Shown here: piece after piece, positions 1 to 1,015 of the stretch
How the letters are laid out: each line of letters begins with the position of its first letter
Numbering within the stretch: the stretch's first letter is position 1
Origin: a virus
Lineage: Duplodnaviria; Heunggongvirae; Uroviricota; Caudoviricetes
Direction: 5' to 3' (one strand)
Virus record (IMG/VR): IMGVR_UViG_2617270962_000012
Span: 1-41,053 of that record
Length of the DNA stretch: 41,053 nt
Position numbers and translations under genes: made by a program
Notes under the pieces: model-generated
The model's database searches: none
What the model saw: only the letters and a program-made list of their open reading frames with translations
What the model was told of the DNA's origin: nothing

Positions 1-540
1 ATGAATCCGTTTAACGCCATTACTTTTGCTGCATTGTGCGGGCCTCTGGCTTGTCCTGCTGCTATGGCGCAGGAGTTCATCATCCAGCCAGCCCCTGTGA
101 TTGCTAAACCTTTTGAGTACTCTCCTTCTGTTGAGGAATTCTCACGCAGAATGGAAGAGGGTAAGGAGATCTTGCAAAAGTTAACAATTGCAGCAGATGA
201 CTACTATATCTGTTTGATTGATCTTAATAGCCAAGATGCTCGCGAGTTTGTTTCCAAAAACGGGACAGATACGACAGAGGCATGCGAAATGTTCCTGCGT
301 GCTTTTGAAGAAGAAGTGAAGCGTACAATTGAATCGCCTCTGCCTGAATTTATCAGGTCAGAACTGAAGGTTTACTGGCGTCATATTGCTAAAGCTCGCT
401 CATCTGTCACTCGCCTTAACAATTACATAAAGAGCATATTTAAAGAAACTGTTACTTTTAGCGGGCGCGCGGATCTTGCTGGAATTGCAGCACTAGCTAG
501 TCACACATCAAATAAGCTAAAATCGATGCAATTTCACTAA
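1..540 (+). CDS. hypothetical protein; putative partner of the downstream toxin-like gene
   Basis: ORF-track ORF with ATG at window position 1 (true start could lie upstream); co-oriented with and 17 bp upstream of 557-1015; hydrophobic N-terminus; no family recognised. Confidence 0.4.
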   Translation: MNPFNAITFAALCGPLACPAAMAQEFIIQPAPVIAKPFEYSPSVEEFSRRMEEGKEILQKLTIAADDYYICLIDLNSQDAREFVSKNGTDTTEACEMFLRAFEEEVKRTIESPLPEFIRSELKVYWRHIAKARSSVTRLNNYIKSIFKETVTFSGRADLAGIAALASHTSNKLKSMQFH

Positions 541-556
541 CCGATAGCGGACGACC

Positions 557-1015
557 ATGCATCTAGAAGTCTCTATTAATCCAGAAACTAGAGCTGAATT
601 TTTTGATGAAGTTTTTCTCAAATTCCCGGAGCTAGAGTCTTCTATCATTGATGATTTCAAGAGATACAAAGCAACCGGTGAGCTTCCGCATTATTTCGGT
701 AGGGACGTTGCGTATACTCAGCCCTATGGTGCTTTTCGGGCTGGGTTGATGCATATCCATCTTTGTCTACCGCCAAACAAGTTTCCCGAGAAACTTCCAC
801 AACCGGATAGGGTCTGCAAGAAAGGTGATCCTGATAATGATGCTTGTCTTGTGTATGTCCAAGGTGAGCTTTATGAGAATAAATATTCACTCATTGCTAT
901 TATGTATCCCGATGCACATGAAAAAGCAAGAAAACATGATGTGATGAGCTATCTGGCGCGAATTGCCCAGAATTATAAAGATGAAAACTACCCCGCCGAA
1001 GCGGGTTTTTTGTGA
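557..1015 (+). CDS. YafO-family-like toxin candidate
   Basis: 152 aa; motifs FGRD..Y, HIHL, LVYxQG, LIAI..P..H..AR resemble the YafO toxin family as I remember it; second gene of a tight two-gene operon; needs HMM confirmation. Confidence 0.4.
   Translation: MHLEVSINPETRAEFFDEVFLKFPELESSIIDDFKRYKATGELPHYFGRDVAYTQPYGAFRAGLMHIHLCLPPNKFPEKLPQPDRVCKKGDPDNDACLVYVQGELYENKYSLIAIMYPDAHEKARKHDVMSYLARIAQNYKDENYPAEAGFL
992..1011. terminator. hairpin plus T-run between convergent genes (possible bidirectional terminator)
   Basis: 'cccgc cgaa gcggg' followed by 'tttttt'; overlaps the last codons of 557-1015 and sits 7 bp from the stop of the convergent 1018-1317 gene. Confidence 0.45.

Follow-up and report, generated by a model that had tools for sequence, protein, structure and literature searches.

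The window analysed here is the stretch of 41,053 nucleotides formed by positions 1 to 41,053 of IMG/VR virus record IMGVR_UViG_2617270962_000012, assigned to the Caudoviricetes, and it opens with a two-gene cassette in which a gene for a 179-residue protein with a hydrophobic N terminus, here called the partner, is followed by a gene for a YafO-family toxin. Both open reading frames (ORFs) lie where the first-pass annotation had put them (1-540, 179 residues; 557-1015, 152 residues), on the plus strand and starting with ATG. The tight coupling that it described also holds, but the gap is 16 nt rather than 17 bp. The features of the cassette and of the surrounding prophage are collected in Table 1.

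Table 1. Coordinates of the cassette, its products, and the prophage features around it (window positions unless stated otherwise)
Feature	Position	Strand	Remarks
attL-side dusA 5' fragment	L001 7772-7798 (about -228 to -202 in window coordinates)		encodes RFSIAPMLD
Partner gene	1..540	+	ATG-started ORF, 179 aa; PGAP coding sequence, same coordinates in relatives
Predicted Sec-type signal peptide	1..69 (codons 1-23)	+	heuristic scan
Best-conserved partner segment	1-99 (codons 1-33)		signal-like part plus QEFIxQPAPV
Partner N-terminal helix	residues 6-24		low-confidence, hydrophobic (AlphaFold)
Partner linker	residues 25-43		disordered (AlphaFold); variable in the family
Partner helical bundle	residues 44-146		AlphaFold
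Partner C-terminal helix	residues 159-175		preceded by a loop (AlphaFold)
Spacer	541..556		16 nt between partner and toxin genes
YafO-family (RelE/BECR-fold) toxin gene	557..1015	+	ATG; window allele 152 aa; canonical gene 557-991, 144 aa plus stop
Stop-loss codon	989..991	+	TAC in the window, TAA in relatives
Intrinsic terminator	992..1011		terminator scan; hairpin 992-1005 (stem CCCGC/GCGGG, loop CGAA), T6 1006-1011
PrtN-family gene ("pyocin activator PrtN family")	1018-1290	-	convergent with the toxin gene; at the far end from the integrase
Tyrosine integrase	38453..39550	-	opposite end of the prophage
Intact dusA	39652-40677		then pspG
attR region	39715..39744	+	within the dusA 5' end; encodes ...RFSIAPMLD

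The downstream protein is assigned to the YafO family by a curated profile, by PGAP naming, and by its predicted fold. The profile search suggested in the first-pass annotation matched PF13957 (YafO_toxin) with 76.2 bits against a gathering score of 25 (E = 2.3e-21, profile positions 1 to 100 of 101), and the NCBIfam equivalog model of E. coli YafO, NF007377, gave 75.6 bits, under its cut-off of 153 bits; the toxin is therefore a member of the family but a different protein from K-12 YafO. It falls in PHROG 1651, PF13957 is present in 43/43 close homologs, and PGAP calls the protein "YafO family toxin" in 50 E. coli genomes. Alignment with K-12 YafO (NC_000913.3) gives 36% identity over 117 residues (E = 2e-19), and the four motifs that the first-pass annotation associated with the family are all present, as YFGRDVAY, MHIHL, LVYVQG, and LIAIMYPDAHEKAR, each aligned with its K-12 counterpart. 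Within 29 members of the window clade the motifs FGRD..Y, HIH, LVYxQG, and P..H..A are invariant or nearly so; they also hold across both clades of the family distinguished below, in which R49, D50, Y53, H66, H68, Q82, Y100, E107, and H121 are conserved. The intact set of conserved residues suggests an enzyme with no sign of inactivation. AlphaFold returned a RelE/HigB-type (RelE/BECR) fold with a pLDDT of 95, and a sequence search of the PDB found zero YafO-family structures. E. coli YafO cleaves mRNA and blocks translation (Zhang et al. 2009; Christensen-Dalsgaard et al. 2010, as cited in PMC11980606), and the ribosome dependence of this cleavage is still debated (PMC11980606). By analogy, the window toxin would cleave mRNA and arrest translation, as is expected from its family membership, its fold, and its intact His, Arg, Tyr, and Glu residues.

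The partner belongs to PHROG 8416 (E = 5e-86), to which no function is assigned there, and PGAP names it "hypothetical protein." The window protein had zero matches in Pfam and NCBIfam and zero among PDB sequences, a Pfam scan of 30 family members was equally empty, a search of PLSDB plasmids found nothing, and neither the partner nor the toxin matched the PADLOC-DB v2 defence models at E <= 0.1. With no counterpart found in the literature, Pfam, the PDB, or PADLOC, the partner constitutes a small, new family. Profile-profile comparison of this family with YafN (hhalign) gave a probability of 0.6%, which, together with the 0/30 members with a Pfam match, argues that the partner is neither a RelB- nor a YafN-type antitoxin, in agreement with the earlier remark that a 179-residue protein with a hydrophobic N terminus does not resemble these small proteins. 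A likeness to YafN over 16 columns (QEFIIQPAPVIA in the partner, KYFIDQPVAVLS in YafN) had an E value of 0.1, is not significant, and was dropped as a sign of homology. The depositor's label "YafM antitoxin" in PV340560 corresponds to no family found; K-12 YafM is presumably an unrelated, transposase-like protein. The partner family is under purifying selection, and the exact window protein is present on no fewer than 1000 public contigs from E. coli, Salmonella, and relatives. AlphaFold predicts a helical protein with a pLDDT of 78 (segments in Table 1), so that the structure predictions of the single proteins suggested in the first-pass annotation yielded a RelE-type toxin and a helical partner.

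The two genes are found together throughout. The partner lies immediately upstream of the toxin at 67/67 IMG/VR loci whose contigs extend 540 nt or more upstream, and each partner homolog examined has a PF13957 gene directly downstream, at spacings from an 8-nt overlap (-8) to +35 nt; both observations argue that partner and toxin are functionally linked, beyond mere adjacency. On the readable contigs, which come from Serratia, Pantoea, S. fonticola, P. chlororaphis, an Enterobacteriaceae chromosome, Candidatus Pantoea multigeneris, and three metagenomic or draft assemblies, the PF13957 genes behind partner homologs encode 144 to 153 residues. A hidden Markov model (HMM) of the partner matches the ORF upstream of the toxin in E. 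coli, Enterobacter, Serratia, Pantoea, Photorhabdus (186 residues, E = 2e-53), Gilliamella (183 residues, E = 6e-13), Pseudomonas, and Halomonas, the last represented by four Halomonas/Vreelandella chromosomes with E values of 1e-8 to 1e-11. Phage HK639 and the Pseudomonas phages YMC11/02/R656 and D14L carry YafO homologs of 44 to 52% identity, each behind a "hypothetical protein" of 168 to 191 residues at an 8-nt spacer, and these upstream proteins share the motif A(K/E)ARS..(R/K)LN and a C-terminal D..GL..LA..T with the window partner. The partner family itself is small: 22 close relatives from Enterobacterales emerged from a word-indexed search, and an exhaustive search of 1.84 billion representative proteins with the partner profile returned 23 clusters only. 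A genome-wide locus scan with a three-sequence alignment gave 8 loci. Upstream of K-12-type yafO genes (K-12, Colwellia, Cognaticolwellia, and a Pseudomonadales metagenome-assembled genome; L008 and L014 to L016), the partner HMM had zero matches, and a YafN-like gene of 95 to 106 codons occupies that place. By these gene neighbourhoods, PF13957 comprises at least two clades whose upstream partners are unrelated to each other. The window pair has the generic layout of a type II toxin-antitoxin (TA) system, being bicistronic, tightly coupled, and co-occurring at 100% of the loci examined.

The sites at which the cassette is found differ widely. It lies at the att end of a dusA phage in the window and in L024, between tape-measure and minor tail genes in HK639 and in Serratia (L017, L026), among baseplate genes in Photorhabdus, next to tail fibres in Gilliamella, next to cI or an anti-repressor gene in Pseudomonas, and next to an integrase in S. 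fonticola and in L027; in Pantoea multigeneris (L025) and Halomonas it is chromosomal, with no phage gene within 3 kb. Judged from these neighbourhoods, the cassette is independently mobile, having entered unrelated phages and non-phage DNA of Enterobacterales, Pseudomonas, Halomonas, and Orbaceae.

The most unusual part of the pair is the predicted signal peptide. The N terminus of the window partner, MNPFNAITFAALCGPLACPAAMA followed by QEF, is hydrophobic; its putative h-region (AITFAALCGPLA) contains a 12-residue hydrophobic core, proline stands at -5, A-M-A occupies -3 to -1, and cleavage is predicted behind Ala23, between AMA and QEF. The call was made with a home-made heuristic for the n-h-c layout and the -3/-1 residues and was positive for 64/78 partner-family members versus 5/39 other window ORFs and 0/16 toxins. 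At least eight N-terminal sequence types share the same layout, with a short charged or polar n-region, a hydrophobic core of 10 to 15 residues, and small residues at -3/-1; they include MARTKVPFSKVAMLSLALSVSTSCA ahead of Q in Pseudomonas, MNLSLRSCLAVVLFGGVLSVPSFSA ahead of G in Photorhabdus, MANHSVINSAILAALFAFSSQA ahead of DE in Gilliamella, and MKTTLSICAAALSMALSSPNVLA ahead of RE in a further subfamily, and several more types exist. Judged by their length, the cores are too short to span the membrane as an anchor. Export of the phage-borne partner via Sec, with cleavage, is thus predicted and likely. The first-pass annotation had considered that the product of the upstream frame might be secreted and have nothing to do with the second gene; the protein does look secreted, but its link with that gene is plain.

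In the enterobacterial subfamily, the signal-like part belongs to the best-conserved segment of the protein, with 75% identity in residues 1 to 33, 54% in the helical domain, and 24% in the linker. Synonymous differences are found at 43% of the identical-residue codons of this segment; since synonymous sites differ freely there, it is the peptide rather than the DNA that is constrained, and conservation at the DNA level, by att arm sites or recent recombination, was excluded. The conserved 33-residue segment may have a second role besides export.

The explanation that we favour, with a confidence modestly above even, is a self-contained mobile cassette that encodes a YafO-family endoribonuclease and a new cognate partner, which replaces YafN and is probably exported. 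The partner would take the place of YafN as the cognate inhibitor of this YafO clade, binding the toxin in the cytoplasm through its helical domain, its flexible C-terminal helix, or both; an inhibitory role is suggested by the co-occurrence, the gene order, the close or overlapping arrangement of the two genes, and the Halomonas versions without a signal, which resemble ordinary type II TA pairs. In the phage-borne versions, free partner would be exported and cleaved through its Sec signal peptide. Speculatively, export would clear unbound partner from the cytoplasm and make it short-lived there, replacing the role of Lon/Clp proteolysis, and the toxin would be released once expression of the cassette stops, as in host shut-off by a phage or loss of the element. 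Such release could, equally speculatively, abort an infection or stabilise the element, with no need of Lon or Clp.

Several points weigh against this explanation. An exported partner cannot neutralise a cytoplasmic RNase, and the two properties are reconciled only by the speculative kinetic model just described. The signal call rests on a heuristic with a false-positive rate of about 13%, the n-region of the window subfamily has zero positive charge, the HK639 subfamily has an N terminus of low hydrophobicity (mean hydropathy, 1.3 to 1.5), and the Halomonas partners lack the signal-like feature altogether. The N terminus is under more constraint than an ordinary signal peptide would call for. 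Most type II antitoxins have a DNA-binding domain, and searches found none in the partner; an inverted repeat nevertheless precedes the genes at most loci (see below). Finally, the 8-residue extension of the window toxin, also described below, may alter its properties.

The features of the N terminus bear equally on a more conventional alternative, namely, that this segment is a cytoplasmic element (a toxin-binding helix, a protease degron that makes the antitoxin labile, or a short membrane tether) of an otherwise ordinary type II TA system whose antitoxin has been exchanged. It would account for the strongest conservation and peptide-level selection falling on the first 33 residues, which is atypical of signal peptides, for the missing basic residue and the weak hydrophobicity in the two subfamilies, and for the Halomonas homologs, in which an N-terminal helix of similar length has no signal features and the genes overlap; cytoplasmic neutralisation is also the simplest mechanism for a RelE-fold RNase. 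However, the n-h-c layout and the small residues at -3/-1 are kept in Pseudomonas, Photorhabdus, Gilliamella, the D14L type, and others despite divergent sequences, and cores of 10 to 15 residues, too short for an anchor, are typical of signal peptides. The c-region AQPAAMA, moreover, is similar to AQPAMA, the stretch around the cleavage site of the PelB leader. We regard this alternative as possible, if rather doubtful.

An equally tentative idea, to which we give limited credence, makes export itself the core of the system: the antitoxin would be unstable because of Sec export and not of proteolysis or, more radically, the pair would be divided over two compartments, periplasm and cytoplasm, and would report on the condition of the envelope or of Sec. 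The RNase would then be restrained only while synthesis of the partner outpaces its export, and the conserved 33-residue N terminus would serve as export signal and toxin contact at once.

It is also conceivable, though distinctly unlikely, that the partner is a periplasmic protein with a job of its own, such as superinfection exclusion, and no antitoxin. The toxin would then be controlled otherwise; it might be intrinsically weak, or it might be activated by unexported partner and so sense envelope or Sec stress during phage attack. The predicted signal peptide agrees with this proposal, as do the lack of a DNA-binding or known antitoxin domain and the frequent location of the cassette at moron sites in tail clusters, where other cargo acts on the envelope, for example the lipoprotein gene HK639_16. 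Stoichiometric joint action is suggested instead by the strict pairing and by the translational coupling, which includes the 8-nt overlap, and chromosomal versions without a signal exist. In addition, a free RelE-type RNase with catalytic-type residues is expected to be harmful without a direct inhibitor, and the pair has no membrane-spanning component that could relay a signal from the periplasm to the cytoplasm.

The cassette appears to carry its own expression signals, most of them lying to the left of the window. A sigma70-like promoter (TTGACC-17-TAGACT) is located about 55 to 80 nt 5' of the partner ATG, and a GAGGT Shine-Dalgarno sequence stands 6 to 7 nt ahead of the ATG; its conservation in 7 loci fixes the start codon of the partner. 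Between the -10 hexamer and the ribosome-binding site, at about -52 to -26 and thus outside the window, 8/9 enterobacterial or Orbaceae loci have an inverted repeat, counted when arms of at least 5 bp fall within the same 27-nt interval (L001 7949-7975; the same interval in L009, L017, L018, L024, L025, L026, and L031). At least five arm sequences were found: AATAGC/GCTATT, GATAAC/GTTATC, CCATCGAC/GTCGATGG, TAAGC/GCTTA, and TTTTA/TAAAA. Single repeats are no better than those of shuffled sequence, which yields such a repeat about 10% of the time; the recurrence at one position is what stands out (binomial 8e-8, for loci that are related). The repeat could be an operator or a hairpin in the 5' untranslated region. 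No LexA box was found within 200 bp upstream of the cassette in a search that recovered, as a positive control, lexA's own boxes in the locus. With a promoter, a palindrome, and a terminator of its own, the cassette is likely expressed in the lysogen.

The terminator at the other end lies between the toxin gene and the convergent PrtN-family gene, and its hairpin was also detected on the minus strand. The overlap of a hairpin and T run with the last toxin codons, pointed out in the first-pass annotation, is real in the window but is not shared by relatives, in which TAA at 989-991 ends the gene before the hairpin. This stop was read base by base in L001, L002, and PhiR40_1, E. coli UPEC 26-1 included, and the usual 144-residue product ends one base ahead of the hairpin. 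The overlap is due to a rare TAA-to-TAC stop-loss, which adds 8 residues (YPAEAGFL) and carries the frame through the hairpin to TGA at 1013-1015, so that it is peculiar to the window allele. Over positions 955 to 1025, 0/50 matching complete E. coli records are identical to the window, and the 152-residue form (WP_032261429.1) was found on 1 public contig versus at least 1000 contigs for the 144-residue form. The change also weakens the hairpin, from -11.6 kcal/mol in relatives to -9.1 kcal/mol in the window. An Rfam search of the cassette and its surroundings found no family (the best score, 19.6 bits for isrK over the terminator, compares with a gathering score of 50), so an RNA antitoxin is not indicated.

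The lost stop codon, the weakened hairpin, and an allele confined to one contig could mark the toxin gene as dispensable and the window pair as a decaying or inactive remnant. We consider this very improbable indeed: both frames are intact, the partner is identical to a protein so widely distributed, and its family remains under purifying selection; the toxin retains all of its conserved residues, and its extension amounts to 8 residues only, placed past the last helix of the model.

The first-pass annotation had left open whether the module is prophage cargo or a separate element, and both descriptions apply, the pair being an independently mobile cassette that here lies inside a prophage. 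The left att site that it had failed to find is indeed absent from the window, which starts at the partner ATG, but was recovered about 200 bp further left in related genomes. There (L001 7690-7800), a dusA 5' fragment annotated by PGAP as truncated tRNA-dihydrouridine synthase lies 5' of the partner gene; the attL and attR core copies are identical at about 18/27 DNA positions and encode the same RFSIAPMLD peptide. A phage with a dusA-specific integrase gives dusA a new 5' end at attR, and the old 5' end stays at attL. The sequence layout accordingly reads as a prophage inserted in the 5' end of dusA, with the displaced host fragment at attL. Because attL lies about 200 bp to the left and the integrase, attR, and dusA lie at the other end (38.4 to 40.7 kb), the module is placed inside the prophage, as the outermost cargo of a dusA-integrating lambdoid element, just within attL. 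Its transcription runs from attL into the prophage and is convergent with that of the early-left genes. The module, about 1.1 kb long, recurs at 99% identity or more in 50 E. coli records, in which PGAP gives the order hypothetical protein, YafO family toxin, PrtN family protein, and the module adjoins zur. The phage records PhiR40_1 and PhiR55_1 (hosts ECOR13 and E. coli C) contain the cassette at nt 222 to 1212, which places it within a functional phage.

Further observations concern the neighbourhood and the records. The PrtN-family gene occupies a spot where an excisionase-like regulator might be expected. Many IMG/VR prophage contigs (L033 to L061) begin at the ATG of the partner or of the toxin; automated prophage boundaries cut into the cassette or just ahead of it and miss its promoter and attL, and because predicted boundaries often cut there, the window starts at the partner ATG. 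The record NZ_CP142787.1 (L002, "plasmid pSX12-2," 55.6 kb) carries the chromosomal genes aphA, uvrA, and ssb, a truncated pdeC, and the same prophage; the chromosome of the same strain also has the locus, and L002 looks like a misassembly, or an excised or duplicated segment, rather than a true plasmid. In L027 (1174-4082, Logan SRR32618728), the cassette is part of an accessory island by the integrase, which also holds a Colicin_M-domain gene, an Acb2/Tad1-hairpin (anti-CBASS/Thoeris sponge-like) gene, and a glutaredoxin gene. The non-phage copies of Halomonas/Vreelandella (L010 to L013) have the partner at about 2475-3005, without a signal-like N terminus, and their genes overlap by 8 nt; in L013 the toxin frame is disrupted.

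That one YafO clade always travels with a specific partner gives annotators a defined family and cassette, and experimenters a testable pair. If the partner is both antitoxin and exported, the cassette would represent an unusual route to antitoxin instability; it would also be a candidate for a trigger of phage defence or prophage maintenance that needs no protease and that phage-encoded Lon inhibitors could not disarm. Toxin families are well known to exchange their antitoxins, which makes the replaced partner one more variant of a familiar pattern. In the literature searched, no paper dealt with the partner family or with the phage names, and no secreted, periplasmic, or membrane-bound antitoxin was described. 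In one prophage survey, YafO toxins figure as "orphans" that lack an antitoxin (PMC10449497), another proposes an unrelated neighbour as the YafO partner (PMC9836087), and a 2025 review of the RelE/ParE superfamily gives PF13957 and the order antitoxin-toxin, with no further information on partners.

The closest known system is YafN-YafO of K-12, encoded in the dinB-yafN-yafO-yafP operon. Its toxin belongs to the same family, PF13957, with aligned motifs, and the gene order is the same, with the partner first and a very short spacer. The antitoxins differ entirely, since YafN is a Phd/YefM-type protein of 97 residues, whereas the window partner, at nearly twice that length, is all-helical with a signal-like N terminus and unrelated; K-12 YafO has 132 residues and the toxin of the window clade 144, with about 12 extra N-terminal residues. 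K-12 yafO is expressed from the SOS-regulated, LexA-controlled dinB operon, whereas the cassette is phage cargo with its own promoter. The ribosome-dependent mRNases of the RelE/ParE superfamily (HigB2, HigB1, RelE, YafQ, and YoeB) have only 5 to 17% sequence identity to the window toxin, and their known antitoxins (HigA, RelB, DinJ, and YefM), unlike the window partner, contain DNA-binding domains but lack signal peptides.

Prophage morons include lambda lom and bor and the superinfection-exclusion gene of HK97, gp15, between the tape-measure and tail-tip genes. Like them, the cassette is an autonomous unit of promoter, gene(s), and terminator at variable sites, as its position in the HK639 tail cluster illustrates; the cargo of the morons named is a single envelope protein, whereas that of the cassette is a toxin-partner pair. 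The cassette also resembles the toxin-immunity pairs of polymorphic toxin, contact-dependent inhibition (CDI), and type VI secretion (T6SS) systems, in which the immunity protein can carry a signal peptide, in that it combines a BECR-fold nuclease-type protein with a dedicated neighbour that has a predicted signal peptide. Unlike those toxins, the window toxin is a single domain of 144 residues with no delivery domain or signal peptide (0/16 toxins signal-like), and unlike those pairs, the cassette has the partner gene first and no secretion-system genes nearby.

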